From Candidatus Gottesmanbacteria bacterium (lineage in GTDB: Bacteria; Patescibacteriota; Microgenomatia; JAMCYU01): a stretch of 64,000 bases of DNA. The notes beneath the pieces were generated by a model. It had not been told where the DNA came from. It made no database searches and worked only from the letters and a program-made list of their open reading frames with translations. Position 1 is the stretch's first letter; each line of letters begins with the position of its first letter. Location: NCBI GenBank assembly GCA_043801155.1, contig JAZDMI010000021.1, positions 194,683 through 258,682 of the forward strand. Direction: 5' to 3'. The position numbers and the translations under genes are program-made. Positions 4,689-64,000 of this stretch are shown one piece after another.

Positions 4689-5648
4689 ATGTCAAACACG
4701 AAATATCTAATAGTTGGTGGAGCGGGATTTATCGGATCGCATCTTTGTGATGAACTTCTCAATAGGGGCGATGAGGTTTTTTGTATTGATAATTTTATTA
4801 CCGGAAATAAAAAAAACATCGAACACCTTATTAAAAACTCATCATTTCATCTTATCGAATGGGATATTACTAAAACATTAGATAAAAATCTTCAATCTCA
4901 AATATCTACTGTTCAGTTTATTTATCATTTAGCCTCGCCTGCCAGCCCGATACAGTATCAAAGATTCCCGATTGAAACTTTATTAGCCAACTCACTGGGA
5001 ACATACAATCTTTTAATGTTGGCTAAAGAAATTAATGCCAGATTTTTATATGCTTCCTCCAGCGAAATCTATGGTGATCCGTTACAACATCCTCAAAAAG
5101 AGCCATATTGGGGTAATGTCAATCCGATTGGTATTCGTTCTTGTTATGATGAAGGGAAAAGATTCGGTGAAGCGATTATAATGGCGTTTATTCGCAAGTT
5201 TGATCTTGATTGCCGGCTGGCAAGGATTTTTAATACTTATGGACCGAGAATGGAAAAAGAAGATGGTCGTGTTGTCTCTAATTTTATTGTCCAGGCATTG
5301 TTAGGCAAACCAATTACGGTGTATGGTGATGGTAGTCAAACAAGAAGCTTTTGTTTTGTATCTGATATGGTTGCGGGTTTAATGAAATTAATGGAAGAAG
5401 AAAAAGCTCGAGGAGAAGTTTTTAACTTGGGTAATCCTGAAGAATACACGATCCTAGAAATTGCGAGGAAAATTAAGGACCGAACCGCGTCTGTATCGGA
5501 AATAAAATTTAATGATTTACCAGAAGATGATCCTGTCCGGCGCCAACCGGATATTACTCGGGCTAAGCAGATTTTAGGATGGCAGCCGATCATTAGTATT
5601 GATCAGGGTCTTGGTCAAACGATTAAGTATTTTGAATCTATTTTATGA
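4689..5648 (+). CDS. uxs: UDP-glucuronate decarboxylase (UDP-xylose synthase, UXS/ArnA-decarboxylase family)
   Basis: VGGAGFIGSHLCDELL Rossmann motif and the UXS hallmark SCYDEGKRFGEA (catalytic YxxxK within YDEGKR), about 320 aa. Located downstream of ugd, which supplies UDP-GlcA. Confidence 0.75.
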   Translation: MSNTKYLIVGGAGFIGSHLCDELLNRGDEVFCIDNFITGNKKNIEHLIKNSSFHLIEWDITKTLDKNLQSQISTVQFIYHLASPASPIQYQRFPIETLLANSLGTYNLLMLAKEINARFLYASSSEIYGDPLQHPQKEPYWGNVNPIGIRSCYDEGKRFGEAIIMAFIRKFDLDCRLARIFNTYGPRMEKEDGRVVSNFIVQALLGKPITVYGDGSQTRSFCFVSDMVAGLMKLMEEEKARGEVFNLGNPEEYTILEIARKIKDRTASVSEIKFNDLPEDDPVRRQPDITRAKQILGWQPIISIDQGLGQTIKYFESIL

Positions 5649-6772
5649 AAGTTGTTATAATTTTACCTACTTATAATGAGAAAGGGAACATTAAACTTCT
5701 CATTGAGCAAATCGAAAAGATTTTTGATCGGATAAATAATTATTCATTTGATATTTTAGTTGTCGATGATTCATCTCCTGATGGGACAGCCTCGGAAGTT
5801 TCAATTGTTCAGAATACATATAAGAACGTTTATCTCTTGGTAAATAAAAAGAAAATCGGTTTAGGTAAAGCATTATTAGTTGGTATGGACTATGCTATCC
5901 AAAAATTGCACGCAGAAGTTCTTCTTGAAATGGATGCTGATTTATCTCATGATCCGAAAAAAATTCCGGAATTTCTTGAAAAAATTGACAAAGGTGCAGA
6001 TTTTGTTATCGGTAGTCGTTATATTAAAGGTGGTTCGATTCCGGAGCGGTGGGGAATTCACCGAAAACTTTTTAGCCGGATTGGTAATATACTGGTTAGG
6101 AGCATTTTGGGAATTTTCCGAATTCATGAATGGACCAGTGGTTTTAGAGCCGTAAGAAGTCGTTTTTTTGAAGACTCTAAAAATGATTTATCTGATTTTA
6201 GCGGCTATACTTTTCAAGTTGCCTTTCTTTATAAAAGTCTTATGAGAGGAGCTAAAATTGTCGAGGTCCCGATTAATTTTTCGGAACGATATTACGGCCG
6301 TTCTAAACTTGCCCCATTAGAATATATATCTAATTTACTTTTTTATCTTATAACTACCCGACTCAATGAATTATGGAAGAATGGATTTATAAAATTTTGT
6401 ATTGTCGGAACAATCGGTTTTTTGGTCAATCTAGTCGGTTTGGAATTCTTTTTCAATTTAGGTGTAAGACCAGGTCCGGCTGCTGCATTAGGAGCAGAAA
6501 TAGCCATTGTGTCGAATTTCTTGTTTAATAATTTTTGGACTTTTTCTGGCGAAAAAATAGTAACAATAACAAGATTAATTATGAAATTTATTCAATTTAA
6601 TGTAACCTCTGCAGGAGCGGTGCTTATACAAGGAATAGTCGTTGGATTAGGAACTCATATTTATGGGGATGAATCACGGCGAATTTTTTTAGTTCTGGCG
6701 ATTATTTTTTTCATTATTCCCTACAGCTGGTTTATCTATAACCGAATTATTTGGAAAACTCATGGAAAATGA
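5645..6772 (+). CDS. GT2 polyprenyl-phosphate glycosyltransferase (Dpm1/GtrB/ArnC-like) fused to a C-terminal GtrA-like 4-TM flippase domain
   Basis: N-terminal VVIILPTYNEKGNI...VVDDSSPDGT (GT2 DxD region), EMDADLSHDP, GSRY. The C-terminal 120 aa (FIKFCIVGTIGFLVNLVGLEFFF...) match GtrA-family topology. ATGA overlap with uxs. Confidence 0.7.
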   Translation: MKVVIILPTYNEKGNIKLLIEQIEKIFDRINNYSFDILVVDDSSPDGTASEVSIVQNTYKNVYLLVNKKKIGLGKALLVGMDYAIQKLHAEVLLEMDADLSHDPKKIPEFLEKIDKGADFVIGSRYIKGGSIPERWGIHRKLFSRIGNILVRSILGIFRIHEWTSGFRAVRSRFFEDSKNDLSDFSGYTFQVAFLYKSLMRGAKIVEVPINFSERYYGRSKLAPLEYISNLLFYLITTRLNELWKNGFIKFCIVGTIGFLVNLVGLEFFFNLGVRPGPAAALGAEIAIVSNFLFNNFWTFSGEKIVTITRLIMKFIQFNVTSAGAVLIQGIVVGLGTHIYGDESRRIFLVLAIIFFIIPYSWFIYNRIIWKTHGK

Positions 6773-8309
6773 AACGAATAATAATAAATTTAGAATTAAA
6801 AAGTTAATTCCTCTGATAGTCTTCTTAGGTATTTTTTTACTGGCTTCGGTTATTCGTTTATACAGGATTGCTGACTATATGACTTTTTTAGGTGATGAGG
6901 GCAGGGATGTTTTAGTTGTTAAACGGATGATTGTTGACCATAAACTTACTTTGTTAGGACCGACTGCGTCTGTCGGAGGATTTTTCTTAGGCCCGATATA
7001 TTACTATTTTATGCTGCCTTTTTTATGGCTTTTTCAACTGGATCCTGTTGGACCAGCAGTCATGGTGGCTCTTTTTGGGATTGCGACAGTTGTTTTAATT
7101 TATAAAGTCGGTAAAGATATGTTTAATACTAAAACCGGACTTACCGCTTCTATATTATACTCAATTTCACCACTGGTCATCGCCTATTCACGCTCGTCAT
7201 GGAATCCAAATCTGGTACCTTTTTTTTCGTTAGCTTTTATATATAGTTTATGGTTAACCGTGTGTGGCAAATGGCATTATTTATTTTTAACAGGCGTAAT
7301 TTTTGGTATTGGATTACAGCTTCACTACCTGTTTGCTTTTCTCCTGCCAATGGCTATAATTCTTTTTCTGATATATGGACGAAACCTGAAAAAGATTAAA
7401 TACTACCTATTGGGACTACTGGGATTTATTGTTGGATATTCACCTTTTTTAGCTTTTGAGTTTCGTCATGGATTCCCTAATACGCAAACCGTACTAAAAT
7501 TTATTTTTTCGGCAAAAGATACCGGATTCACCGGTGCAAAATTTACCTCAATTATTCAAGATGTGACATTCAGACTTTTTGGCAGACTGGTTGATAATTA
7601 TCCTGACCCGGGATGGTTAGCCAATATGCCAAAAAACGAACAGAGTTTTTATTGGATTCTTACGATTATTACCATAACTATTTCTCTAGGAACCTTATTA
7701 ATTAAATTGGTAAGAACCAAAGATAAATCTTATGTTCTTTTATTTTTATGGTTTTTAAGCGGAATTCTGCTCTTTGGTTTTTATAAGAAAGCAATTTATG
7801 ATTATTATTTAGGCTTTATGTTTACCCTACCATTTTTATTGGTTGGATCAGCTTTTTCCTTTTGGTTGCACAGAAAAAATACAATCATTAAATTGGCGAC
7901 CATTTCTATATTATGTTTAATTTTATGGGTTAATTGGGAAGGAAGGCCATTCAGATCTCCTCCTAATCGGCAGCTGGCACAAACTAAAGAAATCTCTCGT
8001 TTTGTATTAAATAAAACTGGCGGTAAGCCCTTCAATTTTGCCTTAGTGACCGGACAAAATTCTGATCATGCCTACCGATATTTTTTTGAAATCTGGGGGA
8101 ACAAGCCGACAACAATTGAGAATCCGGTAATAGATCCAAATAGAAAATCAGTTACACCACAGTTATTAGTTATTTGTGAAAACATAACGTGTCAACCCCT
8201 AGGAAATTCACTTTGGGAAATTGCTGGTTTCGGCCGAGCCGAAATCGAAGGTGAATGGGATGTCTCAGTAGTTAAAGTTTTCAAACTTGGACGTTATAAA
8301 GGGATTTGA
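6762..8309 (+). CDS. Polytopic membrane glycosyltransferase, GT-C superfamily ('family C' paralog 1)
   Basis: About 12 predicted TM helices. First-loop motif RLYRIADYMTFLGDEGRDVLVVKRMI, shared with ORFs 39842-41290(-), 51948-53426 and 55110-56672. It ends the ugd-uxs-GT2 module as ArnT does in Arn operons. Confidence 0.55.
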   Translation: MENETNNNKFRIKKLIPLIVFLGIFLLASVIRLYRIADYMTFLGDEGRDVLVVKRMIVDHKLTLLGPTASVGGFFLGPIYYYFMLPFLWLFQLDPVGPAVMVALFGIATVVLIYKVGKDMFNTKTGLTASILYSISPLVIAYSRSSWNPNLVPFFSLAFIYSLWLTVCGKWHYLFLTGVIFGIGLQLHYLFAFLLPMAIILFLIYGRNLKKIKYYLLGLLGFIVGYSPFLAFEFRHGFPNTQTVLKFIFSAKDTGFTGAKFTSIIQDVTFRLFGRLVDNYPDPGWLANMPKNEQSFYWILTIITITISLGTLLIKLVRTKDKSYVLLFLWFLSGILLFGFYKKAIYDYYLGFMFTLPFLLVGSAFSFWLHRKNTIIKLATISILCLILWVNWEGRPFRSPPNRQLAQTKEISRFVLNKTGGKPFNFALVTGQNSDHAYRYFFEIWGNKPTTIENPVIDPNRKSVTPQLLVICENITCQPLGNSLWEIAGFGRAEIEGEWDVSVVKVFKLGRYKGI

Positions 8310-8404: not shown

Positions 8405-9322
8405 ATGGATGTCCCCATTTTAGAGGTCAAAAACCTCACTAAAAAGTTTGCTGGTTTTACTGCAGTTGACGATATTTCCTTTGAGATTAAGGAAGGGGAG
8501 ATACTGGGTTTATTGGGGCCGAACGGTGCTGGTAAAACAACCACGATCGATATTCTTTTAAGCTTAACAAAACCGACAAGCGGAGAAATTCGGATATTTA
8601 ACCTTGATTTTGTAAAGTACAGAGAAACGATTCTCAAAATGATGAATTTTTCGGCTGCTTATATCAGTTTGCCGGCAAGATTAAAGGTGTTTGAAAATTT
8701 ATATACCTTTGCCAGACTTTATGAAGTACCGAATTATAGAAACAAGGTTGACCAACTACTTACAGAATTTCAGCTGATTGGTTTAAAAAATAAAATAACC
8801 ATGGATTTATCATCGGGCCAATTAGCCAGACTTTGTATTTGTAAGGCTTTTATAAATAATCCCAGATTACTTCTCCTTGATGAACCGACTGTTTACCTAG
8901 ATCCTGATATTGCTGATTTCACCAGGAAATATATTACTAAAAAAGTAAAAGAGGAACGGATGACAGTCCTTTTTACTTCTCATAATATGGCCGAAGTGAC
9001 AGAGCTATGCGACAGGGTTATATTTTTAAATAAAGGAAAAATAATCGCCCAAGATACCCCGGAAATGCTGGCAAAAAAAATTAAGTCTTGTCGGGTAAGG
9101 CTCCTATTTGACAATACCAAAGATAAAGCCTTGACACTTCTTAAAAATTATTTATATAACTTTTGGGAAGACGGAAAGGAAATAATTATTGAACTTAATG
9201 AAGAAAATATCGGTCAACTCTTGGGTAGGTTGTCTTTAGCCAAAATAAAATATTATCAAATTACTATCGAAAAACCAACGCTAGAGGACTTTTTCTTAAA
9301 GATCTCGAGAGAGTTTGTATGA
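8405..9322 (+). CDS. ABC transporter ATP-binding protein (ABC-2 / TagH-Wzt-like exporter ATPase)
   Basis: Walker A GPNGAGKTT, signature LSSGQ, Walker B LLLDEPT, H-loop TSHNM. Confidence 0.85.
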   Translation: MDVPILEVKNLTKKFAGFTAVDDISFEIKEGEILGLLGPNGAGKTTTIDILLSLTKPTSGEIRIFNLDFVKYRETILKMMNFSAAYISLPARLKVFENLYTFARLYEVPNYRNKVDQLLTEFQLIGLKNKITMDLSSGQLARLCICKAFINNPRLLLLDEPTVYLDPDIADFTRKYITKKVKEERMTVLFTSHNMAEVTELCDRVIFLNKGKIIAQDTPEMLAKKIKSCRVRLLFDNTKDKALTLLKNYLYNFWEDGKEIIIELNEENIGQLLGRLSLAKIKYYQITIEKPTLEDFFLKISREFV

Positions 9323-10110
9323 ATTTAACCAGGGTATTTGCTATTGTAATTAGACATTTATATCTATGGCCAAGAACTATCGAAAGGATGATGGGTGCCT
9401 TTGGGTGGCCAATTTTTGATCTTATCATTTGGGGATTAGTAACAACCTATATAATGAAAAGTTCAAATCTGTCATTTTCTTTAACCGGTTTTATTTTAGG
9501 CGGATTAATTCTTTGGACTATTGTTTGGCGGGTGCAAAATGATATTTCGGTAAACTTCCTCGATGAGGCCTGGAATAAAAATCTAATAAATATTTTTTCA
9601 ACACCATTAACCCCCAAAGAGTTCTTATCGGCAATGATAATATTAAGTTTAATTAAGATTTCTATGACAACTCTAAGTATTACCGTTGGCGCGTATATTT
9701 TATATCGTTTTAATTTTTTGGCAACATTTGGTTTATATATTCCCGTGTTGTTTATAAATTTATTATTGTTTGGGTGGATATATGGATTCTTAGTTAATGG
9801 TTTAATACTCCGCTACGGATATATGGTGGCTGAATTAGCCTGGGCGTTAATTGCTCTTGTCCAACCATTCGCTTGTGTTTTCTATCCATTAGCCTCGTTA
9901 CCTTTATGGGCTCAAAAAATCGGATTAATGATTCCAGTAACATATGTGTTTGAGGAAATGCGTAATATTTTATTTACCGGAAATATAAATTGGAATAACC
10001 TGTTAATTAGTTTTATTTTAAATATGATATATCTTGTATTATCCCTATGGTATTTCAGGTCAATGTTTGAGAAAGCCAGAGAATTCGGGCGTTTAGTAAA
10101 ACTAAATTAA
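9319..10110 (+). CDS. ABC-2 type transporter permease (TagG/Wzm-like)
   Basis: 263 aa, 6 predicted TM helices, ATGA-coupled to the ATPase gene; typical ABC-2 architecture. Confidence 0.7.
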   Translation: MNLTRVFAIVIRHLYLWPRTIERMMGAFGWPIFDLIIWGLVTTYIMKSSNLSFSLTGFILGGLILWTIVWRVQNDISVNFLDEAWNKNLINIFSTPLTPKEFLSAMIILSLIKISMTTLSITVGAYILYRFNFLATFGLYIPVLFINLLLFGWIYGFLVNGLILRYGYMVAELAWALIALVQPFACVFYPLASLPLWAQKIGLMIPVTYVFEEMRNILFTGNINWNNLLISFILNMIYLVLSLWYFRSMFEKAREFGRLVKLN

Positions 10111-10111: not shown

Positions 10112-10876
10112 ATGAACAATAATAAAATCTACGTTTCTGTAATTATTCCTTGTTACAACGAGGAACAAAATATTAAAACAGGTATTCTTGATAAGGTCTA
10201 TGCTTATCTTGAGAAACAGAATTATTCCTGGGATGTAAATATTGTTGATGATGGTTCAAGTGATAATAGCGTTCGTCTGGTCGAAAAATTTATTAGTGGC
10301 CATCCCAATTTTTCATTAATCAGAAATCCTCATCAAGGAAAAGCAGCTACCGTTATTTCGGGCATGCTTCAAGCAAAGGGGAAATATGTCCTTTTTAGTG
10401 ATTTTGATCAAGCTACGCCAATTGAGGAAATCGAGAAAGTTTTACCATGGTTTGATCAAGGTTTTGATATAATAATTGGCTCTCGAAGTAGTCACCGGAA
10501 AGGAGCACCGTTATCTAGATTAATTATTGCCAGAGGATTTATGTTACTTAGGCATTTAGTATTAGGTCTTGAAGGAATTTCTGATACTCAATGCGGTTTT
10601 AAGGCTTTTAAAAATGATGTCGCCAATAAGCTATTTGGTTTTTTAAGATTATACGGAGAGAAAAAAAGTGTATCTGGCCCGCTTGTTACTGCCGGTTTTG
10701 ACATTGAACTTCTTTTTTTAGCTAAAAAATTAGGTTTTAAAATTAAAGAAGTGCCAGTTGAATGGCATTATGTTGAGACCAGAAGGGTAAATCCGGTAAA
10801 AGATTCATGGTATGGTTTTTGGGATTTAATTTTGATTCGGTTAAATGAGATCCGTGGTCTTTATGATAAAAAATAG
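10112..10876 (+). CDS. GT2 glycosyltransferase (polyprenyl-phosphate sugar synthase-like)
   Basis: VSVIIPCYNEEQNI...IVDDGSSDNS, DFDQATP, GSRS motifs of Dpm1/CsbB-type GT2. Confidence 0.7.
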   Translation: MNNNKIYVSVIIPCYNEEQNIKTGILDKVYAYLEKQNYSWDVNIVDDGSSDNSVRLVEKFISGHPNFSLIRNPHQGKAATVISGMLQAKGKYVLFSDFDQATPIEEIEKVLPWFDQGFDIIIGSRSSHRKGAPLSRLIIARGFMLLRHLVLGLEGISDTQCGFKAFKNDVANKLFGFLRLYGEKKSVSGPLVTAGFDIELLFLAKKLGFKIKEVPVEWHYVETRRVNPVKDSWYGFWDLILIRLNEIRGLYDKK

Positions 10877-12044: not shown

Positions 12045-13123
12045 GGTTAAGACTCGAACTGATATTGTTGGTAATTATCCTGCTTATTAATCTTAGTTTC
12101 CGAATTTATAATTTTAGAATCGAATATCTAACAAAATTTGATCCTGTTTATTGGCAAAACCGTTATCTTCAATCACAATGGGTTGATCCTCAATCAAAGA
12201 ATTCAATCGGTGATGATGGTCTCTATGCGTACGCCGGATGGGCATATATTACTGGTCACGATCCGACGACTCTTAACGCGGAAATGCCCCCATTGGGGAA
12301 ATATATAATCGGACTTTCTATTTTAATCTTCCACAATCAGAATATATATGCTCTGACTATCGGTCTTTTATGCTTACTTTTCTTTTATAAATTAAATTTT
12401 CTTATACTAAAGAATAAACTGTGGTCTCTTATCCCGGTAGTAGTTTTTTCTTTTGAACCGTTGTTTTATCAACAATTGAGAGCGCCCTATCTTGATACTT
12501 TATATCTTCTTTTGCTGATGTTAACTTTCTTTAGTTTTTTAAAAAAGAAATTTTTCTTAACAGGTCTATTTATAGGACTAATGGCCTTGACTAAAAACTC
12601 TGCCTCTACATTTTTACTTTTGGGATTAACTTTAGTCGGGTATTTATTTATTACGGAACGTGAACAAATAATCAAATTTATTTTAAATCTGCCGGTGGCA
12701 ATAATAATATTCATTCTGGGGTACAGCCGATATTTTATATTGGGGCACAATTTAAGGGAATTTTTAGGTGTGCAAAAATGGATACTGAATTTCTATAGCA
12801 TCGGAGCAAAGGGTAGCCTGGGCATGGTTATGCCGATGTTTTTTAATCATTGGCAAACATGGTGGAATGGCGTGATTAAGATTTCTGAATGGCAAATTAC
12901 TTGGCCGGTAACGTTGGTATTCAGTATTTTGTATATAGTATTTAGTATTTTTCGACATAAGTTTGACGCAAGTTTGTTAATAGTTATTTGGCTTATTATT
13001 TTTATTTCCTTTTTAAGTTTTATTCCTGTTTGGCCGAGATATTTCTTGCTGATTTTACCATTTACTTATCTACTAACAATTAATTTGGTCAAAGAAACAG
13101 TTAGTAATATAATAAGTAGATAG
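12041..13123 (+). CDS. PMT/GT39-like membrane glycosyltransferase (short form)
   Basis: Loop motif DDGLYAYAGWAYITGHDPTTLNAEMPPLGKYIIG resembles the PMT-family D-E ... hPPLgK signature. 360 aa, multi-TM. Confidence 0.45.
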   Translation: MRLRLELILLVIILLINLSFRIYNFRIEYLTKFDPVYWQNRYLQSQWVDPQSKNSIGDDGLYAYAGWAYITGHDPTTLNAEMPPLGKYIIGLSILIFHNQNIYALTIGLLCLLFFYKLNFLILKNKLWSLIPVVVFSFEPLFYQQLRAPYLDTLYLLLLMLTFFSFLKKKFFLTGLFIGLMALTKNSASTFLLLGLTLVGYLFITEREQIIKFILNLPVAIIIFILGYSRYFILGHNLREFLGVQKWILNFYSIGAKGSLGMVMPMFFNHWQTWWNGVIKISEWQITWPVTLVFSILYIVFSIFRHKFDASLLIVIWLIIFISFLSFIPVWPRYFLLILPFTYLLTINLVKETVSNIISR

Positions 13124-41290: not shown

Positions 41291-41311
41291 AATATGTTTA
41301 TTTAAAAATAT

Positions 41312-43009: not shown

Positions 43010-43036
43010 CTAATTAAGGTATAATTACTAATAACA

Positions 43037-51335: not shown

Positions 51336-51339
51336 GAAT

Positions 51340-56672: not shown

Positions 56673-58306
56673 AAAAGCATCTCCCTCTTTTTATTCTTCT
56701 TATACTAGCGTTTATACCAATGCTTGATTTCTTTTATCCGGGATTACCTTTAACTCATGATGGTCAAGATCACGTTGCCCGGATAGCCAGTTTTTATCAA
56801 TCGTTGGTTGAAGGAAACCTCATTCCTAGATGGGCAGGTAATCTAAATTGGGGCTATGGACATCCAATCCTAATGTTTCTTTATCCCTTGTCATCCTACA
56901 CTGCGTCTTTTTTCCATATTCTTGGCCTAGACTTAGTTAATAGTATCAAAGTAGTTTTTGTTATAAGTTTTGTTTTTTCCGGATTATCGATGTATTTGTG
57001 GATAAGTAGTCTATGGGGACGGAAAGCAGGATTAGTATCAGGATTACTTTATATGTTTGCTCCTTACCATTTTGTAGATATATACGTTAGAGGTGCTATT
57101 GGGGAGAATTTGGCTTTTGTTTGGCCACCGCTAATATGTTATTTTGCCTATACATTATCAAAAAAAGTTAAATATCGTCATTTGCTGGGCTTAGCATTAT
57201 CATTTGCCGCTTTGATTTTATCCCACAATGCTTTAAGTATAATGTTTTTTCTTCCGATAATAGGTTATATGGTATTTTTAGTAATCGAGTCAAATAATAA
57301 AAAGCTGACCGCTTTCTGCTTTCTGCTTTCTTCGATTATCGGTTTAGGATTAAGCGCATTTTTTTGGATTCCTGCTTATTTTGAAGGCAAATACACTCTT
57401 CGAGATATTGTGACCAAAAATAATATTACTGGTTTTGTTGAGAATATCCAGCGTTTAATCTGGTTTCCTTGGAGTTATGATGGAGCCGATAATATTCCAG
57501 TCCAGCTTGGTATCATGCAATGGATAATAATTTTAATTAGCCCGCTCGTAATTTGGTTTTTTAGGCGAAAGAAGATGAGTTTTTGGAAATTTTTAGTATT
57601 TCTTCTATTTATATTTTGGGTGTCAATATTTATGATCCTGCCGGTATCCCGTCCGCTCTATAACGTTTTCCCGGCATTACAAAAGCTTCAGTTTAGCTGG
57701 CGTTTTTTATCATTGGCAATATTTACTCCGGCGATATTCGTCGGTGCATTAATATATTTATTTCCAGACAGGATCGGGACACTTTTTACATCAATAATAG
57801 TTATCGGAATATTGTTATTAAATAAAAATTATTGGCATGCTCAAAGTTATCTATATCAAAATGAATCATTTTACCAAGGAATTTATAATGGAACTACGGA
57901 TACTGGTGAAAGTGCACCCCGTTGGTCGGTTCGATTTATGGAAAAACGTCCAAAATCACATATAGAAGTTATTGATGGTCAGGCGAACATTAAAGAAATT
58001 AAGAGAAATACAAATGAACATCAATATGAGATCAATACCACCACAAAAACAAGAATCCGTGAAAATACTCTCTATTTCCCAGGCTGGCAGGTACTTATAG
58101 ATAATCAACCATCAGCAATTGAATTTCAAGACGAACACAACCGGGGATTAATAACATTTTTCGTCAAACCCGGTAAACATGTAGTTACCGTAAAATTTGG
58201 AGAAACAAAATTACGTTTGGTATCTGATATTATCAGTTTCATGAGTCTACTATTTTTAATAGGGACATTTTTCTTTAAAAAAAGAATATTAAATATTTCA
58301 AAATAA
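56669..58306 (+). CDS. 'Family B' polytopic membrane protein (paralog 5)
   Basis: LTHDGQDHVARIASFYQSLVEGNLIPRWAGNLNWGYGHPILMFLYPL; FFWIPA and QFSWRF; C-terminal LYFPGWQVLIDNQPSAI...KPGKHVVTVKF. Confidence 0.55.
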   Translation: MKKHLPLFILLILAFIPMLDFFYPGLPLTHDGQDHVARIASFYQSLVEGNLIPRWAGNLNWGYGHPILMFLYPLSSYTASFFHILGLDLVNSIKVVFVISFVFSGLSMYLWISSLWGRKAGLVSGLLYMFAPYHFVDIYVRGAIGENLAFVWPPLICYFAYTLSKKVKYRHLLGLALSFAALILSHNALSIMFFLPIIGYMVFLVIESNNKKLTAFCFLLSSIIGLGLSAFFWIPAYFEGKYTLRDIVTKNNITGFVENIQRLIWFPWSYDGADNIPVQLGIMQWIIILISPLVIWFFRRKKMSFWKFLVFLLFIFWVSIFMILPVSRPLYNVFPALQKLQFSWRFLSLAIFTPAIFVGALIYLFPDRIGTLFTSIIVIGILLLNKNYWHAQSYLYQNESFYQGIYNGTTDTGESAPRWSVRFMEKRPKSHIEVIDGQANIKEIKRNTNEHQYEINTTTKTRIRENTLYFPGWQVLIDNQPSAIEFQDEHNRGLITFFVKPGKHVVTVKFGETKLRLVSDIISFMSLLFLIGTFFFKKRILNISK

Positions 58307-58310: not shown

Positions 58311-58838
58311 ATGAAAAAGATTCTTATTATATTTATTTATATTTTCGTAATTTATTTATTTTCCACTACGATATATGCTCAATCGTCGTACGTTTTGCCT
58401 TATCCATCTTATATGCCAGGAAGTATTTTATATAAACCTCATCTTCTATGGGAAGAAATCTCAAGTTATTGGTATTTCGGGACCTTATCTCAATTTAAAT
58501 ATAATTTAAAACTAGCAGATAAATACTTAGTTGAAGCAAAAATCCTATTTGAGTACCAACAGTACCCATTGGCAATAAATGCACTTGAAAAGTCTGATAA
58601 ATATTTTCAAGAAGCGACCGTTAGTTTAAAATTTGCCAAACAACAAGGGAAAAATATTAATCTTAAACAAGATATATATAATCAGGCTGCACTTAAACAT
58701 ACAGAAACACTCGATGATTTGGAATCATTTTTACCGAGCAAATTTACCTGGTTACCGGAAAAAGCAGCCGCCACAATATTGAATATAAAACCAATCATTG
58801 ATAATTCTATAAAAATACGTAGAAAATCATATTTATGA
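58311..58838 (+). CDS. Small secreted protein with cleavable signal peptide, unknown function
   Basis: MKKILIIFIYIFVIYLFSTTIYAQS, then a hydrophilic 150-aa domain rich in predicted helices (LKLADKYLVEAKILFEYQQYPLAINALEKSDKYFQEA). Confidence 0.45.
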   Translation: MKKILIIFIYIFVIYLFSTTIYAQSSYVLPYPSYMPGSILYKPHLLWEEISSYWYFGTLSQFKYNLKLADKYLVEAKILFEYQQYPLAINALEKSDKYFQEATVSLKFAKQQGKNINLKQDIYNQAALKHTETLDDLESFLPSKFTWLPEKAAATILNIKPIIDNSIKIRRKSYL

Positions 58839-59959
58839 TAATAAGTTTATATTTAATAATATTATCCTTTTTAACTGTTTTTTCCTATAGATTCATCGAT
58901 GATAATTTCCCCCTAACACTTCCTCCTTATATTCATGATTTTACACATCTCGAAAGATCAATAACGACAATAATTTTTATCGTAATTTTATTCTTTATGT
59001 TCACGGGATTTACCATTTTGTGGCGTCAAGTAGTACAAAAAAGAATCTCTACGATTAAACTTAAATATTTAATTACCTTTACTGTAATAATACTGATTTT
59101 TGCATATCCAGCGTTTTCAAATGATATTTTTAATTACATGGCCACGGCCCGGGTCAGTTATTTTTATCAAGAAAATCCATATATTATGATGCCGATTGAA
59201 TTTATTGGTGAACCGATGCTTAAATTCATGCACGCGGCTAATAAGATCGCTCTTTATGGTCCAATCTGGATTGGTTTAACCTTTTTACCGTTTTTAACTG
59301 GATTGGGAAATATTATTTTAACGCTTATCTCTTTTAAGATTTTTATTACATTATTTTATGTTGGGATTATTTGCCTAATATGGAAGTTATCAAATCATAA
59401 TCTTTCCAGTTTAGTTTTTTTCAGTCTTAACCCGTTAGTATTAATCGAAACGCTAATTTCATCACACAATGATATCGTGATGATGTTTTTTGTTTTATTT
59501 AGCCTGCTGCTTATTAAAAAATATAAAGTTTTTGCTTTATTTATGTTTTTATTTTCAATACTAATAAAATATTCGACGATAACACTTATACCAATATATT
59601 TATATATTTTATGGAAAAATATAAAAAAACAAAAAATTGATTGGGAAAATATATATTTATACGCTGCTATTTTAATGTTCCTAACAATGCTAATAGTAGC
59701 TCCACTACGAGAGGAAATTTATCCCTGGTATGGGATTTGGTTTTTGACATTTCTATCATTAGTTCCAAAAATAGAACTACAATTTTTATCACTAGTATTT
59801 TCCCTTGGATTATTATTACGATATGTACCCTTTATGCTCTGGGGAACTTATTTCGGACCAACACCAGTAGCAAAAACCATCTTAATGATTACCCCAATTG
59901 GTTTAATGTTATTTCTCCATATATTTCGAAAGTTATGGTTAAAAAAATTTCTCCGCTAG
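58835..59959 (+). CDS. Polytopic membrane protein, putative GT-C glycosyltransferase ('family E' paralog 2)
   Basis: FSNDIFNYMATARVSYFYQENPY; SSHNDIVMMFFVLFSLLLIKK; YGPIWIGL. Collinear with ORF 10845-12044. Confidence 0.5.
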   Translation: MIISLYLIILSFLTVFSYRFIDDNFPLTLPPYIHDFTHLERSITTIIFIVILFFMFTGFTILWRQVVQKRISTIKLKYLITFTVIILIFAYPAFSNDIFNYMATARVSYFYQENPYIMMPIEFIGEPMLKFMHAANKIALYGPIWIGLTFLPFLTGLGNIILTLISFKIFITLFYVGIICLIWKLSNHNLSSLVFFSLNPLVLIETLISSHNDIVMMFFVLFSLLLIKKYKVFALFMFLFSILIKYSTITLIPIYLYILWKNIKKQKIDWENIYLYAAILMFLTMLIVAPLREEIYPWYGIWFLTFLSLVPKIELQFLSLVFSLGLLLRYVPFMLWGTYFGPTPVAKTILMITPIGLMLFLHIFRKLWLKKFLR

Positions 59960-61611
59960 CCATAGTAATATTTTTTACTGTGTTGGCAGGTTTAGGGTTA
60001 TTGCACTCTGGATTAATACCTACCCACGATGGTGAATATCATATTGTAAGGTTTTATGAATTTAACCAGTCATTGCAGGATGGAAATTGGTATCCTCGTT
60101 GGGCTCCAGATTTAAATTATGGTTTTGGAGTACCATTATTTAATTATGTTTACCCTTTCCCAAATTATATTGCTTCATGTATCCATACTCTTGGTTTTAG
60201 TTTTATTGATGCATTTAAGCTTAATTTATTTATGGCTACCATTGTTGGAGGAATATTTTTCTATTTATGGGCGAAAATGTTTTGGGGGGAAATCGGAGGA
60301 ATAGTTTCTTCAACTTTCTATTCATTTTCACCTTATCGCCTTGTTGATATTTATATTCGTGGTTCGGTGGGCGAAGTGTGGGCATTATCTTTTTTCCCAG
60401 CATTTTTGTGGTCAGCTACTTCTTTTTTCCAGAAAAGAAACGAATACTATCTTCTCTTATCAAGTATATTTCTTGCTTTAACAATTCTTTCTCATAATAT
60501 TTTAGCTTTAATGTTTTTCTTTTTTGATTGTTCGTATATTGTTTTCCTAATTTTTACAGTAAAAAAGAGAAGTGACTATGTATATCAATCAATTTTTTTA
60601 ATTCTGTTGGGTCTTGGTTTATCATCGATATTTTGGATTCCGGCATTAATAGAAAAGAATTTTGTTACCGGACTGGAAATTTTTGATTACCAGGCTCATT
60701 TTCCAGAAGTTTATCAATTATTAATTCCTTCATGGGGTTCTGGATTTTCCGGAGGAAATTTGGGTGAACAAATGTCATTTCAAATCGGTTTAGCCAACCT
60801 CTTTGCCGTTACTTTAGGTATCTTATGCATCATTCTATATTTTTCGCGTAAGCAGGTTTTTTTAGCTAAAACTATTATTTTTTCGTTATTATTTTTTTCA
60901 TTTATATTTTTTATGATGACCAGATTATCTATACCTATTTGGGAAAAGATATCGCTTTTGAGGTATTTTCAATTTCCTTGGCGTTTTTTAAGTATAACGA
61001 TATTGTTAACATCCTTTTTAGCTGGCGGAATTTTTCCATTATTAAGAAAAAATCAAAAACTTTTTATGGGTAGTTTTATGATTTTAGTAACATTTCTATT
61101 AGGCTACGGCTATGCTAAACCTGCTTACTATCAAAACCGAAATGATGATTATTATCTCAATAAATCAATCTTTATCGATGGAACAAATAGCCCCGGTAAT
61201 TATTTTAATACAATTTGGATTAATACCAGACCAAAAAGAGAACCTGAGAAATTAAAAATTAATAAAGGAAAAGGTTCAATTAAAATTAATTTTATTAAAT
61301 CGACTCATTATAATTTTTCTACCCATGCCGAAACCCAGATAGAAATTCTGGTTAATACAGCATTTTTTCCTGGTTGGGCAGCTTATATTGATAATAAACA
61401 ACAAGAATTATCAAAAAGTACTGCCGGTTTATTTATGTTTAATATCCCTTCAGGTGATCATCAGGTCGAAGTTAAATTTGAAAATACTTTGACTAGAAAT
61501 ATTAGCCAAATATTATCCGGCATGGCTCTTATTTATATTAGTTATCAGTTGTTATTCAATCTAAAAAGGCAAAAAAAATATGGAAACGACAAATCAACTC
61601 ATCTGATATAA
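59935..61611 (+). CDS. 'Family B' polytopic membrane protein (paralog 6)
   Basis: Start chosen at the internal ATG (MVKKISPLAIVIFF...) instead of the track ORF start 59641, which would overlap the upstream gene by more than 300 bp. IPTHDGEYHIVRFYEFNQSLQDGNWYPRWAPDLNYGFGVPLFNYVYPF; FWIPA and QFPWRF; C-terminal AFFPGWAAYIDNKQQEL...PSGDHQVEVKF. Confidence 0.55.
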   Translation: MVKKISPLAIVIFFTVLAGLGLLHSGLIPTHDGEYHIVRFYEFNQSLQDGNWYPRWAPDLNYGFGVPLFNYVYPFPNYIASCIHTLGFSFIDAFKLNLFMATIVGGIFFYLWAKMFWGEIGGIVSSTFYSFSPYRLVDIYIRGSVGEVWALSFFPAFLWSATSFFQKRNEYYLLLSSIFLALTILSHNILALMFFFFDCSYIVFLIFTVKKRSDYVYQSIFLILLGLGLSSIFWIPALIEKNFVTGLEIFDYQAHFPEVYQLLIPSWGSGFSGGNLGEQMSFQIGLANLFAVTLGILCIILYFSRKQVFLAKTIIFSLLFFSFIFFMMTRLSIPIWEKISLLRYFQFPWRFLSITILLTSFLAGGIFPLLRKNQKLFMGSFMILVTFLLGYGYAKPAYYQNRNDDYYLNKSIFIDGTNSPGNYFNTIWINTRPKREPEKLKINKGKGSIKINFIKSTHYNFSTHAETQIEILVNTAFFPGWAAYIDNKQQELSKSTAGLFMFNIPSGDHQVEVKFENTLTRNISQILSGMALIYISYQLLFNLKRQKKYGNDKSTHLI

Positions 61612-61627: not shown

Positions 61628-62683
61628 ATGAATATAGCTATCGATACTACACCATTGCGAAAGGATCATTTCCTTCAGCACAGAGTACGTGGTACTGGTT
61701 TTTATATTGAGAATCTAAAAAGAGCTTTATTAAAATATTTTCCCCAAGATAAGTACATTTTTATTACTCGAGGAGAAAAAGTACCCAAAGATATTAATCT
61801 GATTCATTATCCTTATTTTGAACCGTTTTTCTTAACGTTACCATTTAAAAAGCAAACAAAAACTGTCGTCACAGTGCATGATTTGATACCATTAGTTTTT
61901 CCCGATTATTTTCCATCGGGTATTAAAGGTAAAATTAAATGGTTAATCCAAAAATACTCACTCCGACAAACAAATGAAATTATTACAGATTCGCAGTCCT
62001 CTAAAAGGGATATTATTAAATACACTGATATTAATTCTGAAAAGGTTCACGTTGTCTATCTGGCAGCTGGAGAAAACTTCCGCTCAACCAATGATAATGA
62101 AATAAAAACTGATATTATACGGAAACTTAATTTACCCAAAGATTATATTCTTTATGTGGGCGATGCGACCTGGAATAAAAATTTACCCAGGTTGGCAAAA
62201 GCGATCAAGAAAATTAACTTACCTTTAGTAATGGTTGGCCAAGCATTGGTTAATACCGACATTGATGCCAATAATCCCTGGAATCGAGACCTAATTGAGG
62301 TTAAAAATCTAATTAAGAACGAACCGCAAATTATATTAACCGGATTTGTCTCGGAAAATGATCTTATCTGCCTATATCAATCTGCTAAGGTTTTTATTAT
62401 GCCTTCGCTATATGAGGGTTTTGGTTTACCCGTGCTGGAGGCGTTAAGCTGTGGTTGTCCTGTAATAACCGCGGAAAAAGGTTCCTTAGAGGAAATTGCC
62501 GGAGATGCGCCATTCTATATAAATCCCTATAGTGAAGACGATATTGCCAATGGTATAAGTACTGTTTATTATAACGATGCACTAAGATCTGAGATGATTA
62601 ATAAGGGAATTATTCAATCGAAGAAATTTACATGGCAAAAAACTGCCGCTGCGACAATGGCTGTCTATGAAAAAACAATTTAA
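61628..62683 (+). CDS. GT4 (GT-B fold) glycosyltransferase
   Basis: MPSLYEGFGLPVLEALSCGCPVI (E-x7-E region); TVHDLIP; no TM; 351 aa. Confidence 0.7.
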   Translation: MNIAIDTTPLRKDHFLQHRVRGTGFYIENLKRALLKYFPQDKYIFITRGEKVPKDINLIHYPYFEPFFLTLPFKKQTKTVVTVHDLIPLVFPDYFPSGIKGKIKWLIQKYSLRQTNEIITDSQSSKRDIIKYTDINSEKVHVVYLAAGENFRSTNDNEIKTDIIRKLNLPKDYILYVGDATWNKNLPRLAKAIKKINLPLVMVGQALVNTDIDANNPWNRDLIEVKNLIKNEPQIILTGFVSENDLICLYQSAKVFIMPSLYEGFGLPVLEALSCGCPVITAEKGSLEEIAGDAPFYINPYSEDDIANGISTVYYNDALRSEMINKGIIQSKKFTWQKTAAATMAVYEKTI

Positions 62684-63935
62684 AGACATATTATCCCACC
62701 CCTTAATATCTGGAAGTTTGATATTTTCTGCTGGTTCGTTTTTCTTCAGCATTTTAAATTACCTATTTAATTTATTAATGGGCCGCGTTCTATCTGTTGC
62801 CGACTATGGAGTCCTTATTGCTTTAACGACGACGATTAATATTTTATCTATTTTTGCTCAATCAGTTATAACTGTTTTTACAAAATTTTCTGCTTCATTA
62901 ATTGGTCAAAATAAGGGCGGAGCGATCAGGGAGTTATTTAAAAAAGGGACTTTTTGGATCGCGATTTTTGGTTTTATTATCTCTGTTATTATTTTTATTT
63001 TACGTAGTACTATATGTCAATTCTTTCATATACAGGAAACGATATATATTGATTTTGTTATTCTGATAATATTTTTATCGTTTATGCAATCAGTCGGTTT
63101 TGGTATTCTTCAGGGACTCCTCCGCTTTGGTACTTATTCAATTATTAATATATTTATAACAATAATTAAGTTATCACTTGGGCTATTATTTGTATATTTA
63201 GGAGGTAGGACATTGGGAGCTTTAAGCGCCTATTTAATATCAGCCTTTATTGGATATATTTTGATTTTTATACCATTAAAAAAATATTTAAACCAAAAAG
63301 ATCAATTTCATTTACCATATGAGAATTTACCGAATAAACTAATTATCTATGGTATCCCTGTTTTTCTATCAAGTATTGGCGTGTCTGGCTTTATGTCGGT
63401 AGATGTTATACTGGTCAAACATTTCTATTCGGCAAACGATGCTGGATTGTATTCGGCTTTATCGTTGATGGGACGCTCAATTTTTTATTTACTTGCCCCA
63501 ATCAATTATGTACTTTTTCCGTTAGTTGCGCAAAAGAAGGAAAAAGGCGAAAATCTATCGAAAATACTGATAATGACACTGATATTGACTGGTTTACCAA
63601 CAATCTGTTTAACTATAATCTATTTTATTTTCCCTAAGCTTATTCTGACAATATTTTTTCCTGCCCCGGCATATAGTGGTCTGATTACATACTTAGGTCC
63701 CTTTTCCGTATTCATATTATTTTTTACGCTGGCTTCAATCTTGAATAATTTTTACTTATCAATTGGTAAAACCCGGGTTTTTATTTTAACAACAATTGGT
63801 TTAATAACGGAAATTATCTATATACTTTATTTCCATAACAGTTTCACTCAATTAATCACCGGATTGATTGTGACAAGTTTTTTACTTCTTTTTGGGCTTT
63901 TGTTATACTACCCATATGCAACCAGAAAAAACTAG
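62667..63935 (+). CDS. Oligosaccharide flippase (Wzx/MOP-family 'polysaccharide biosynthesis protein')
   Basis: 422 aa, about 12 TM helices; N-terminal LISGSLIFSAGSFFFSILNYLFNLLMGRVLSVADYGVLIALTT pattern typical of this family. Confidence 0.6.
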   Translation: MKKQFKDILSHPLISGSLIFSAGSFFFSILNYLFNLLMGRVLSVADYGVLIALTTTINILSIFAQSVITVFTKFSASLIGQNKGGAIRELFKKGTFWIAIFGFIISVIIFILRSTICQFFHIQETIYIDFVILIIFLSFMQSVGFGILQGLLRFGTYSIINIFITIIKLSLGLLFVYLGGRTLGALSAYLISAFIGYILIFIPLKKYLNQKDQFHLPYENLPNKLIIYGIPVFLSSIGVSGFMSVDVILVKHFYSANDAGLYSALSLMGRSIFYLLAPINYVLFPLVAQKKEKGENLSKILIMTLILTGLPTICLTIIYFIFPKLILTIFFPAPAYSGLITYLGPFSVFILFFTLASILNNFYLSIGKTRVFILTTIGLITEIIYILYFHNSFTQLITGLIVTSFLLLFGLLLYYPYATRKN

Positions 63936-64000
63936 ATTGCTTTCGATTATTATCCCCGTTTATAAAGAAGAAAAAACAATTCTCAATAACTTAAAATCTA
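63916..64000 (+). CDS. GT2 glycosyltransferase, 5' fragment (continues beyond the window)
   Basis: ATG at 63916; translation MQPEKTRLLSIIIPVYKEEKTILNNLKS shows the GT2 N-terminal strand-loop motif. Confidence 0.5.
   Translation, partial: MQPEKTRLLSIIIPVYKEEKTILNNLKS

Follow-up and report, generated by a model that had tools for sequence, protein, structure and literature searches.

A predicted envelope-glycan locus with 25 GT-C-type membrane glycosyltransferases in a Candidatus Gottesmanbacteria contig

What could a bacterium be doing with some 25 membrane-embedded glycosyltransferases of the GT-C type that are encoded side by side? The question is raised by a stretch of DNA of 64,000 nucleotides (referred to here as the window) from a Candidatus Gottesmanbacteria contig (JAZDMI010000021.1 of assembly GCA_043801155.1). 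The original prediction, made from the letters alone, had described the region 5645-64000 as a lipid-carrier-dependent glycosylation cluster with about 25 such enzymes. We called 49 open reading frames (ORFs) of at least 100 residues in the window (g01-g49); Pfam was searched with every ORF and NCBIfam with a selection. The region 5645-64000 contained 44 genes, and the predicted number was borne out, as 25 of the 44 encoded polytopic proteins that could be assigned to the GT-C type by Pfam, NCBIfam, paralogy, profiles or predicted fold. They were accompanied by 10 GT2 genes (including the GT2-GtrA fusion g06), two GT4 genes (g24 and g48), two Wzx genes (g18 and g49), an ABC ATPase and an ABC-2 permease (g08 and g09), a methyltransferase (g40) and two small anchored proteins (g29 and g45). 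The 25 GT-C genes covered 41.5 of the 58.4 kb (71%). To our knowledge, this count is far above that of any characterised surface-sugar locus.

A lipid-carrier-dependent glycosylation locus, as had been proposed, is the natural reading of this gene set. The best explanation that we can offer, and one that we hold with moderate confidence as a whole, is that the genes belong to one large, vertically inherited envelope-glycan locus, most of it inside the window.

GT-C identity of the 25 membrane proteins

The 25 polytopic proteins were 360-824 residues long, with 6-13 hydrophobic segments each in a Kyte-Doolittle scan. Sixteen of them (g07, g13, g14, g16, g23, g25, g26, g30, g32, g33, g34, g37, g38, g42, g44 and g47) scored above the Pfam gathering thresholds for PMT/PMT_2, YfhO, PTPS_related or PIG-V. 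Another seven (g11, g12, g15, g31, g41, g43 and g46) were tied to GT-C enzymes by paralogy, profile comparison or NCBIfam; BLAST paralogy reached 1e-50 to 1e-70 for g15, g31 and g41 and 4e-20 (to g07) for g43, and profile comparison agreed with it. The GT-C genes, with the evidence for each, are as follows (hidden Markov model, HMM; transmembrane segment, TM).

6762..8309, plus strand: g07, GT-C group D (PMT_2); PF13231 at 8.9e-15, 'GDEGRD' after TM1
10845..12044, plus strand: g11, GT-C group E (MptA/GT87-like); TIGR03459 at 5e-19, orthologues match PF26314 (MptA_B_family)
12041..13123, plus strand: g12, short GT-C candidate related to PMT_2; 32 bits with a combined C+D profile, hhalign to group D 63%, 'GDDG'
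13139..14620, plus strand: g13, GT-C (PMT_2), grouped with D; PF13231 at 4.4e-11, 'TDE'
14623..16980, plus strand: g14, GT-C group A (YfhO, 785 residues); PF09586 at 1.8e-30
16977..18533, plus strand: g15, GT-C group B (PTPS_related / short YfhO); BLAST 8e-70 to g44, weak PF10131
18526..20232, plus strand: g16, GT-C group B; PF10131 and PF13231 above cut-offs
24258..26222, plus strand: g21, GT-C of an unnamed family; predicted fold; MFH0864207.1, V1858_03910
26986..29301, plus strand: g23, GT-C group A (YfhO); PF09586 at 3e-13
30353..35142, plus strand: g25 and g26, GT-C group A (YfhO; 772 and 824 residues); PF09586 at 4e-21 and 1.6e-22
36059..37588, plus strand: g28, GT-C of a second unnamed family; predicted fold; MFH0864214.1, V1858_03945
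38249..39892, plus strand: g30, GT-C group B; PF10131 at 2e-21
39842..41290, minus strand: g31, GT-C group D; BLAST 6e-54 to g41 and 1e-15 to g07
41312..43009, minus strand: g32, GT-C group C (PMT/PMT_2); PF13231 and PF02366, orthologue in locus L015 also on the minus strand
43037..46316, plus strand: g33 and g34, GT-C group C (PMT/PMT_2); PF02366 and PF13231 above cut-offs, invariant 'DE' after TM1
47861..49498, plus strand: g37, GT-C group B; PF09586 29.4 bits against a cut-off of 28.5, BLAST 2e-78 to g44
49508..50602, plus strand: g38, GT-C (PIG-V / GT76-like), linked to group E; PF04188 45.5 bits against 22.4, group E HMM 9e-9
51948..53426, plus strand: g41, GT-C group D; BLAST 7e-50 to g31, weak PF13231
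53501..55174, plus strand: g42, GT-C group C; PF13231 and PF02366 above cut-offs
55110..56672, plus strand: g43, GT-C group D; BLAST 4e-20 to g07, Agl23 model TIGR03663 at 6e-6
56669..58306, plus strand: g44, GT-C group B; PF10131 at 4e-13
58835..59959, plus strand: g46, GT-C group E (MptA-like); 36% identical to g11, TIGR03459 at 2.8e-8
59935..61611, plus strand: g47, GT-C group B; PF10131 and PF09586

The paralogues were sorted by all-against-all BLAST and by HMMs built from the window proteins. At least six paralogue groups had been expected, and seven were counted. The proteins were arranged as follows.

Group A, YfhO of about 780 residues: g14, g23, g25, g26
Group B, PTPS_related / short YfhO: g15, g16, g30, g37, g44, g47
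Group C, PMT / PMT_2: g32, g33, g34, g42
Group D, divergent PMT_2: g07, g31, g41, g43, plus g13 and g12
Group E, MptA/GT87-like: g11, g46, plus the PIG-V-like g38
Orphans, no family: g21, g28

Comparison of the groups by hhalign gave probabilities of 99% for A with B, 98% for C with D and 93% for B with C. All four group C proteins passed the PMT model PF02366 (g32 23.3, g33 41.3, g34 30.4 and g42 36.2 bits, with a cut-off of 22.7); their PMT_2 scores equalled or exceeded those for PMT, and the only PDB sequence match of the group C profile was ArnT (5ezm, 8e-5). In group E, g11 and g46 scored 68.5 and 33.1 bits with the MptA model TIGR03459, against an equivalog cut-off of 439, and are thus placed with MptA by sequence at the family level only. 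As for g12, PF13231 was seen in two of the 120 homologues listed, and JGI names also pointed to its assignment.

GT-C enzymes characteristically carry a DxD motif, or a modified form of it, in one of their extracellular loops (PMC8035078). We observed invariant acidic residues after TM1 in group A (D66), group B (D31, in 'HDGE'), group C (D39-E40), group D (D45) and the g28 family (D39, within the motif 'FVDEDEN'); the acidic motifs of g12 and g13 directly follow TM1 as well. In group E no acidic residue was invariant across all three members (g11, g46 and g38).

The two orphans had to be approached through their predicted structures. We found no Pfam, NCBIfam or PDB sequence match for g21 and no Pfam match for g28, with Pfam silent for both even at E <= 5, and the homologues that we collected (89 for g21 and 33 for g28) carried no Pfam domain. 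PDB sequence searches likewise returned nothing useful for g21, g28 or groups A, B and D. The AlphaFold2 models (pLDDT 94 for g21 and 91.8 for g28) were helical bundles with a small C-terminal region of mixed helix and strand. When the g21 model was compared with the PDB using Foldseek, the top 25 matches were all GT-C enzymes, led by DPY19 (5.6e-8) and followed by STT3, PglB, AglB and ArnT. The leading matches of the g28 model were also GT-C enzymes (STT3 at 2.5e-5, PglB, AftA, ALG9, DPY19, ArnT and Pmt4). The Foldseek probability for the two models was 1.00 to GT-C enzymes and at most 0.11 to transporters, and a transporter identity of the orphans was rejected on these results. TM-scores to structures of the oligosaccharyltransferase (OST) type were 0.37-0.54 when normalised to the query, and the C-terminal domain of g21 matched the globular domain of AglB-S2 (target-normalised TM-score 0.57). 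Profile comparison by hhalign connected g21 to group B (71% probability) and g28 to group C (92%); the invariant D148 of g21 lies at the start of the stretch aligned with group B, near D31 of that group. Membership of g21 and g28 in the STT3/PglB/AglB family was rejected, since there was no WWDYG-type motif and no PF02516 match, and the likeness was at the level of the fold only.

We also considered whether the large membrane proteins might be transporters or inactive relics rather than glycosyltransferases, or the whole array an assembly artefact. Six of the 25 proteins had no Pfam match at all, another three had sub-threshold matches only, and groups A, B and D had no sequence-detectable relative of solved structure. 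However, all nine of these proteins were linked to GT-C enzymes by paralogy, profile comparison, NCBIfam or predicted fold, and the acidic motifs were conserved; the profile and structure searches that had been suggested as a check for transporters returned GT-C families and GT-C folds. As to an artefact, the window contained no repeated DNA segments, and the gene order recurred in GCA_040960625.1, in GCA_023473585.1 and in several metagenome contigs. Both versions of this explanation are, in our view, barely credible. Sequence and fold comparison together confirmed the GT-C type for all 25 polytopic proteins, weakly in the case of g12, and from their family membership these proteins are predicted to use polyprenyl-phosphate-sugar donors.

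Three of these proteins also bear on the source of the DNA. The proteins g21, g28 and g12 each had a counterpart with 100% identity in a Candidatus Gottesmanbacteria metagenome-assembled genome, in agreement with the uncultivated lineage that had been suspected; all three counterparts, that of g12 being V1858_03865, are annotated as hypothetical proteins, and the spacing of the V1858 locus tags agreed with our gene calls. The g21 family reaches well beyond the window. Its profile recovered 1,010 cluster representatives (clusters at 50% identity) at E <= 1e-30 among 1.84 billion, all of about 640-680 residues. One homologue, in a Levybacteria genome (L001, 10001-12004), lies amid housekeeping genes (SecA, SerRS), outside any glycosyltransferase cluster, which suggests that proteins of the g21 type may be a core enzyme of Microgenomates.

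The gene start of g47 needed a correction. Its ORF opens at 59641 with a TTG, 98 codons upstream of the starts of its paralogues, and would overlap g46 by 319 nt. Since the first 98 residues align with no paralogue, these codons are probably not translated and the real start is probably the ATG at 59935, giving an overlap of 25 nt with g46.

Two small proteins stand next to GT-C genes and were placed as follows.

37581..38261, plus strand: g29, protein of 226 residues with an N-terminal membrane anchor; no family match
58311..58838, plus strand: g45, DUF5667 protein with an N-terminal anchor or signal sequence; PF18915

An orthologue of g29 (43% identity) adjoins the g28 orthologue in L015 (10001-12162), and g28 and g29 may be a pair of enzyme and accessory subunit. 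The g45 gene lies directly upstream of the MptA-like g46, with an overlap of 4 nt, and the pair is kept in L003 (2911-4588). By position, the MptA-like g46 is a possible functional partner for the DUF5667 protein.

Donor, flippase and exporter genes, and a proposed assembly line

The remaining genes of the locus can be described as follows (short-chain dehydrogenase/reductase, SDR; dolichyl-phosphate mannose synthase, DPMS).

324..1337, plus strand: g01, dTDP-glucose 4,6-dehydratase (RmlB); TIGR01181 479.7 bits against a cut-off of 365, Pfam match
1347..2279, plus strand: g02, RmlD-like dTDP-4-dehydrorhamnose reductase with an atypical N-terminus; PF04321 at 8e-54
2281..3573, plus strand: g03, UDP-glucose 6-dehydrogenase; three UDPG_MGDP_dh domains, TIGR03026 466 bits, above cut-off
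3711..4670, plus strand: g04, nucleoside-diphosphate-sugar 4,6-dehydratase/epimerase, nearest GDP-mannose dehydratase; PF16363 at 1.5e-88, TIGR01472 203 bits, under cut-off
4689..5648, plus strand: g05, SDR sugar-nucleotide enzyme resembling UDP-glucuronate decarboxylase / the ArnA C-terminal region; NF008872 at 1.7e-34, ArnA C-terminal region at 1.4e-33, both under cut-offs
5645..6772, plus strand: g06, fusion of GT2 with a GtrA/DPMS membrane domain, candidate polyprenyl-phosphate-sugar synthase; PF00535 and PF04138, full-length likeness to ArnC, DPhHxTase and AglJ
8405..10110, plus strand: g08 and g09, ABC ATPase and ABC-2 permease (exporter); PF00005 and PF01061 above cut-offs
10112..10876, plus strand: g10, GT2 resembling polyprenyl-phosphate-sugar synthases; PF00535, PgfS and ArnC at 4e-16
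20208..20930, plus strand: g17, GT2 resembling polyprenyl-phosphate-sugar synthases; ArnC and DPhHxTase matches
20943..22430, plus strand: g18, Wzx-type flippase; PF13440 at 1e-47
22409..23314, plus strand: g19, GT2 of the g19/g22/g35 subgroup; PF00535, TIGR04283 and SunS likeness N-terminal only
23316..24233, plus strand: g20, GT2 of the rhamnosyltransferase/EpsD type; TIGR01556 at 5.7e-24
26219..26989, plus strand: g22, GT2 of the g19/g22/g35 subgroup; Pfam, BLAST and NCBIfam
29311..30372, plus strand: g24, GT4; PF00534 at 6e-17
35145..36062, plus strand: g27, GT2 of the EpsD/PgaC type; Pfam and NCBIfam
46318..47112, plus strand: g35, GT2 of the g19/g22/g35 subgroup; PDB matches GmaR and SunS, N-terminal part only
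47099..47839, plus strand: g36, GT2 resembling polyprenyl-phosphate-sugar synthases; AglJ and PpgS at ~1e-19 over the full length, Pyrococcus DPMS 5mlz at 7.5e-6
50622..51335, plus strand: g39, AglJ-like GT2 resembling polyprenyl-phosphate-sugar synthases; TIGR04182 at 1.4e-39, under the equivalog cut-off
51289..51951, plus strand: g40, S-adenosylmethionine-dependent methyltransferase; PF13489 and PF08241
61628..62683, plus strand: g48, GT4; PF00534 at 5e-30, recurs after a g35-like GT2 in relatives
62667..63935, plus strand: g49, Wzx-type flippase; PF01943 and PF13440

The original prediction had counted about 11 GT2 polyprenyl-phosphate-sugar synthases, two GT4 enzymes, two Wzx flippases, a GtrA fusion and an ABC-2 exporter. 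All but the first of these counts held by Pfam. We found 10 GT2 proteins, and a full-length likeness to characterised synthases (ArnC, AglJ, PpgS, DPhHxTase or Pyrococcus DPMS) was seen only in g06, g10, g17, g36 and g39. In the subgroup g19/g22/g35 the likeness to TIGR04283, SunS and GmaR was confined to the N-terminal part, and these proteins lacked transmembrane segments; a g35-like enzyme may be a donor synthase or a glycosyltransferase acting on proteins or on a primer. Flippase functions were represented by the PF04138 domain of g06 and the Wzx models of g18 and g49; the window had no free-standing GtrA gene. Among the sugar-nucleotide genes, g02 scored 171.7 bits with TIGR01214, under the cut-off of 224, and only its residues 94-300 were aligned. 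As RmlA and RmlC were not in the window, either the dTDP-rhamnose pathway is incomplete here or its product is another 6-deoxyhexose.

On this basis we propose that the locus is probably an extracytoplasmic, lipid-carrier-dependent line for the assembly and decoration of an envelope glycan. In the first step, judging from their families, g01-g05 would supply a dTDP-6-deoxyhexose (through the rhamnose pathway), UDP-glucuronate and a derived pentose or keto-sugars. At the cytoplasmic face, the GT4 proteins g24 and g48 and the GT2 proteins g20 and g27, possibly with g19, g22 and g35, would build a lipid-linked primer or oligosaccharide, while g06, g10, g17, g36 and g39 would load single sugars onto polyprenyl phosphate, the substrates in both cases being predicted. 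The two Wzx proteins, the ABC-2 exporter and the GtrA domain of g06 would then carry the lipid-linked species across the membrane. At the outer face, each of the 25 GT-C enzymes would move a sugar from a polyprenyl-phosphate-sugar to its own position on the growing acceptor, so that a few donors would feed many linkage-specific transferases. This last step is suggested by the family membership, the conserved acidic motifs of loop 1 and the small number of donor synthases relative to GT-C enzymes. A secondary cell-wall glycopolymer seems the most probable acceptor and is favoured by the rhamnose and UDP-glucuronate genes, the ABC-2 exporter and the YfhO enzymes; surface proteins are the main alternative.

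Several points weigh against this proposal. Activities, donors and acceptors of the locus proteins are predictions. None of the 10 GT2 proteins reached an NCBIfam equivalog cut-off, and g06, g10, g17, g36 and g39 fell far below it. The GT-C assignment of g12 is the weakest of the 25, and the membrane-segment counts came from a crude hydropathy scan. In the Pfam scans, a priming phosphoglycosyltransferase, a Wzy polymerase, a chain-length regulator, an LCP ligase, RmlA and RmlC were not found in the window; PF00953, PF02397, Wzy_C and Wzz gave no match at E <= 0.01 among its ORFs of at least 100 residues, and such genes could lie elsewhere on the 272.5-kb contig. The backbone of the glycan and its anchoring are therefore not accounted for by the window. 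Lastly, the PMT-model matches of group C and the fold of g21 and g28, nearest to OST and DPY19, fit protein acceptors as well.

For this last reason, protein glycosylation is a serious rival. It would have group C, g21, g28 and perhaps the YfhO-like enzymes attach and extend O- or N-linked glycans on secreted surface proteins, for instance S-layer or pilus subunits. The group C proteins keep the loop-1 'DE' motif in addition to passing the PMT model (23-41 bits), the best structural matches of g21 and g28 (DPY19, STT3, PglB and AglB) modify proteins, and the GT2 subgroup g19/g22/g35 is nearest in PDB sequence to the protein and peptide glycosyltransferases GmaR and SunS. Likeness of fold inside the GT-C superfamily, however, does not tell the acceptor; ArnT, the sole PDB sequence match of group C, is a lipid modifier and not a Pmt, and g21 and g28 lack both the WWDYG motif and a Pfam STT3 match. 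The GmaR and SunS likeness covers only the N-terminal, nucleotide-binding part. Moreover, an ABC-2 exporter, rhamnose-pathway and UDP-glucuronate genes and YfhO proteins are typical of wall-polymer loci, and the Levybacteria homologue of g21 sits outside any glycosyltransferase cluster. Taken together, we regard it as unlikely that protein glycosylation is the main function of the locus.

Organization of the locus and its conservation among relatives

The wall-glycan proposal treats the paralogues as steps of one pathway. The features that border or interrupt the locus are the following.

1..321, plus strand: 3' end of a Nudix-hydrolase-like gene, with the Nudix box 'AKRELIEETGI' in its translation; left border, outside the locus
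3646..3665, plus strand: terminator-like GC-rich hairpin in the gap between g03 and g04, with an 8-bp stem and 6 GC pairs; consensus match only
63915..64000, plus strand: start of a further GT2-like gene, whose N-terminus MQPEKTRLLSIIIPVYKEEKT is typical of GT2

The cluster had been described as co-directional and as starting at 5645. It does run to the end of the window, and the GT2-like ORF opening at 63915 indicates that it extends past it. Its left end, however, was at 324, where the five sugar-nucleotide genes directly follow the Nudix gene fragment, and g31 and g32 (39842-43009) were on the minus strand, the only such genes in the window. The G+C content was uniformly low, about 0.29-0.36. 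Translational coupling, another feature claimed for the cluster, was evident, with 28 of the 48 gene junctions in the window overlapping, in 12 cases by exactly 4 nt (ATGA or TTGA), and with the widest intergenic gap, between g03 and g04, being 137 nt. We observed that g32 (minus) and g33 (plus) diverge with only 27 nt between them (43009-43037), and that g30 and g31 converge with a 51-nt overlap. This tight spacing implies that promoters for g32/g31 and for g33 onward must lie inside coding sequence; promoter-like sites in the window were not above the shuffled expectation.

In line with what had been stated, no regulators or mobile elements were found in the window in Pfam, transfer RNA and Rfam scans, and neither were transfer RNA genes or Rfam RNAs. 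Relatives do carry small genes of the Trp_repressor family (PF01371) inside the locus, at 5728-6174 (minus) and 19028-19459 (plus) in L097 and at 5702-6148 (minus) in L098. They sit between the g07/g08 and the g17/g18 orthologues, where L097 also has an Rce1-like protease gene. A hidden TrpR-like regulator was rejected for the window, as tblastn found neither a Trp_repressor nor an Rce1-like gene in it; a gap of 95 nt is left at the g07-g08 position.

The paralogues of the window were only 22-39% identical to each other in BLAST, and no DNA repeats longer than 55 nt were present. The lack of long repeats, together with the age of the paralogues, excludes recent amplification or mis-assembly.

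Comparison with independent assemblies, which had been proposed as a further check on the array, revealed colinear loci. In GCA_040960625.1, the loci L097 and L015 abut on contig 21 (JBFOMW010000021.1, 462,319-504,905) and are colinear with g03-g20, g22, g24-g30, g32-g35 and g48 at 43-88% identity. This locus spans at least 42.6 kb with 15 GT-C genes, and g21, g23 and the block g36-g47 are missing from the corresponding place. For L098 (GCA_023473585.1) the colinear stretch is g03-g19; the g03 orthologues in L097 and L098 shared 69-78% identity with g03 of the window. L016, on another contig of GCA_040960625.1 (JBFOMW010000009.1), has a variant order, with g48 ahead of g36, and its g36 orthologue showed 82% identity. 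The distal module g44, g45, g46, g47, g48, g38 is kept in L003.

A smaller module was observed in Shapirobacteria, Woesebacteria and other low-GC contigs, in which 2-6 PMT-like GT-C genes precede a g35-like GT2 and then a g48-like GT4. In L005, L007, L012, L015, L016, L024 and L027 the g35-like gene always stood after the PMT-like array and before the g48-like gene. A DPMS-like GT2 of the g36 type lay beside or within the PMT-like array in L024 and L027. High-GC organisms sharing a g36 orthologue had 0-2 GT-C genes per 10-20 kb, indicating that the GT-C density is lineage-specific. A metagenome scan with g49 found no relative.

Two observations concern the relatives themselves. L003, L004, L006 and L012 are titled 'uncultured Gammaproteobacteria bacterium', and we observed that they have a GC of 0.29-0.42 and PMT-like arrays of the Microgenomates type, with g35-like and g48-like genes 44-58% identical to those of the window; the taxonomic label looks wrong. 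In GCA_040960625.1, the contigs JBFOMW010000021.1 (602 kb) and JBFOMW010000009.1 (788 kb) each carry a diverged copy of the locus, and their g28 orthologues show 55% and 44% identity to g28 of the window. At 1.39 Mb together, which is large for a genome of the candidate phyla radiation (CPR), this bin may mix two related organisms.

The contrast between colinear 1:1 orthologues (44-88%) and paralogues within the window (22-39%) indicates that each paralogue has been individually maintained, as would be expected for distinct steps of one pathway. This is where we depart from the original prediction, which had suggested a 'combinatorial' system. The 1:1 orthologues in the same order elsewhere point to a fixed multi-step pathway with modules gained and lost between species, and not to mixing and matching within one cell. 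By sequence, the window is the largest observed version of a lineage-wide architecture whose paralogues are individually conserved.

A related explanation would make the paralogues alternative modules of a variable surface glycan, used in phage evasion or host recognition in the manner of O-antigen serotype conversion; a cell would employ only part of the modules at any time, or strains would differ in them. The content of the loci does vary, with 15 GT-C genes in L015/L097 against 25 here, a block absent there, a different order in L016 and tandem PMT-like genes numbering 2 to 6 among the Microgenomates loci. Yet every gene of the locus was intact and tightly coupled, and the paralogues are old, each with a conserved orthologue. 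No invertases, recombinases or long inverted repeats were found in the window, although short simple-sequence tracts were not specifically scanned. An invertible switch around g31/g32 was rejected, as there were no flanking inverted repeats and the orientation of g32 is kept in L015; the inversion of g32 is thus fixed across species. Conserved paralogues, intact genes and this fixed inversion argue for variation between lineages rather than switching in one cell, and we consider a combinatorial or variable system distinctly unlikely.

CPR bacteria (Patescibacteria) make up a large share of bacterial diversity; they are mostly uncultivated, are thought to be attached to other cells, and the chemistry of their envelopes is little known. 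That a reduced genome would spend about 60 kb mostly on 25 extracytoplasmic glycosyltransferases, individually conserved across species, suggests that these organisms depend centrally on a very elaborate surface glycan. It might serve in attachment, in host recognition or as a shield against phage or predators. The locus is also a compact natural collection of divergent GT-C enzymes, some from families with no model, for structural and enzymological work, and its genes could be used as markers to follow the diversity of surface glycans through Microgenomates metagenomes.

Comparison with known glycosylation systems

By predicted family, the parts list of the locus is that of the three-component systems (GtrA/GtrB/GtrC, CsbB-GtcA-YfhO, GtlA-GtcA-GtlB, and L. 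lactis CsdAB/CD/EF with CflA; PMC8035078, PMC5836110), in which a GT2 maker of polyprenyl-phosphate-sugar works with a GtrA or Wzx flippase and a YfhO or PMT_2 GT-C enzyme bearing an acidic loop motif. Such a combination of a GT-A C55-P-sugar synthase, a GtrA/Wzx flippase and a GT-C enzyme acts on teichoic acids and on ABC-exported rhamnose polysaccharides (PMC8035078). The known systems, however, pair one GT2 with one GT-C for one side-chain sugar, whereas here five (at most eight) candidate synthases face 25 GT-C enzymes, GtrA is present only as a fused domain, and Pfam has no model for two or three of the GT-C families. The locus is thus not a simple member of this class, though its working logic appears to be the same.

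A second comparison is with the rhamnose wall polysaccharide loci of Firmicutes (S. pyogenes gacA-L, S. mutans rgp, L. lactis cwps and E. faecalis epa), where, as here by gene family, dTDP-rhamnose genes stand in a single co-directional locus with GT2 and GT4 enzymes of the cytoplasm, Wzx, an ABC-2 exporter and extracytoplasmic GT-C decoration. These loci are of about 15-30 kb with 1-4 GT-C genes, against 25 here. Of the parts of an ABC-dependent wall-polymer system, the window has the permease, the ATPase, GT2, GT4, RmlB and the RmlD-like protein, but not a GacO/TarO-type priming enzyme, RmlA, RmlC or an LCP ligase.

With the GT-C enzymes of protein glycosylation (PMT/GT39, STT3/PglB/AglB and DPY19), the locus shares the PMT model and the 'DE' of group C, and g21 and g28 superpose best on DPY19, STT3, PglB and AglB. 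It differs from this class in that g21 and g28 have neither WWDYG nor a Pfam STT3 match, the TM-scores reach only about 0.4-0.55, and the acceptors are predicted only.

The assembly of mycobacterial arabinogalactan, lipoarabinomannan and phosphatidylinositol mannosides (EmbA/B/C, AftA-D, MptA/B/C and PimE) uses many linkage-specific GT-C enzymes and few lipid-monophosphate donors, as is proposed here. In sequence or fold there are direct points of contact, since g11 and g46 are MptA-like and the g28 model matches the mycobacterial GT-C enzymes AftA, AftB and AftD. The mycobacterial donors are decaprenyl-P-arabinose and polyprenyl-P-mannose; the window has no genes for decaprenyl-P-arabinose synthesis and no Emb-type C-terminal carbohydrate-binding domains. 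Mycobacterial GT-C genes are also scattered over the chromosome and are not known to form one operon-like array. With few donors for many GT-C enzymes, the proposed assembly line comes closer to that of arabinogalactan and lipoarabinomannan than to the 1:1 systems of Firmicutes.

A more tentative suggestion is that Gottesmanbacteria and related Microgenomates may build most of a complex, branched envelope glycan outside the membrane from few polyprenyl-phosphate monosaccharides, with an operon-encoded set of ~25 linkage-specific GT-C enzymes. This would be a mycobacterium-like strategy of independent origin in ultra-small CPR bacteria, and at least two of its GT-C families (the g21 and g28 types) would lack an existing model; the g21-type protein (at least 1,000 clusters at 50% identity) is perhaps a lineage-wide enzyme of the OST/DPY19-like kind. 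If the genome is assumed to be of some 1 Mb, no less than 5% of it would be given over to the locus.

We found no description of such GT-C arrays in CPR bacteria in the literature searched, although most subscription journals were outside its coverage, so that this is no proof of absence. The class of mechanism, lipid-carrier-dependent extracytoplasmic glycosylation by GT-C enzymes, is known. What appears to be new is the presence of two or three GT-C families with no model of any kind, the operon-like concentration of the genes in a CPR genome that is expected to be reduced, and the scale, since a single locus has at least 25 GT-C genes where characterised wall-polymer loci have 1-4.

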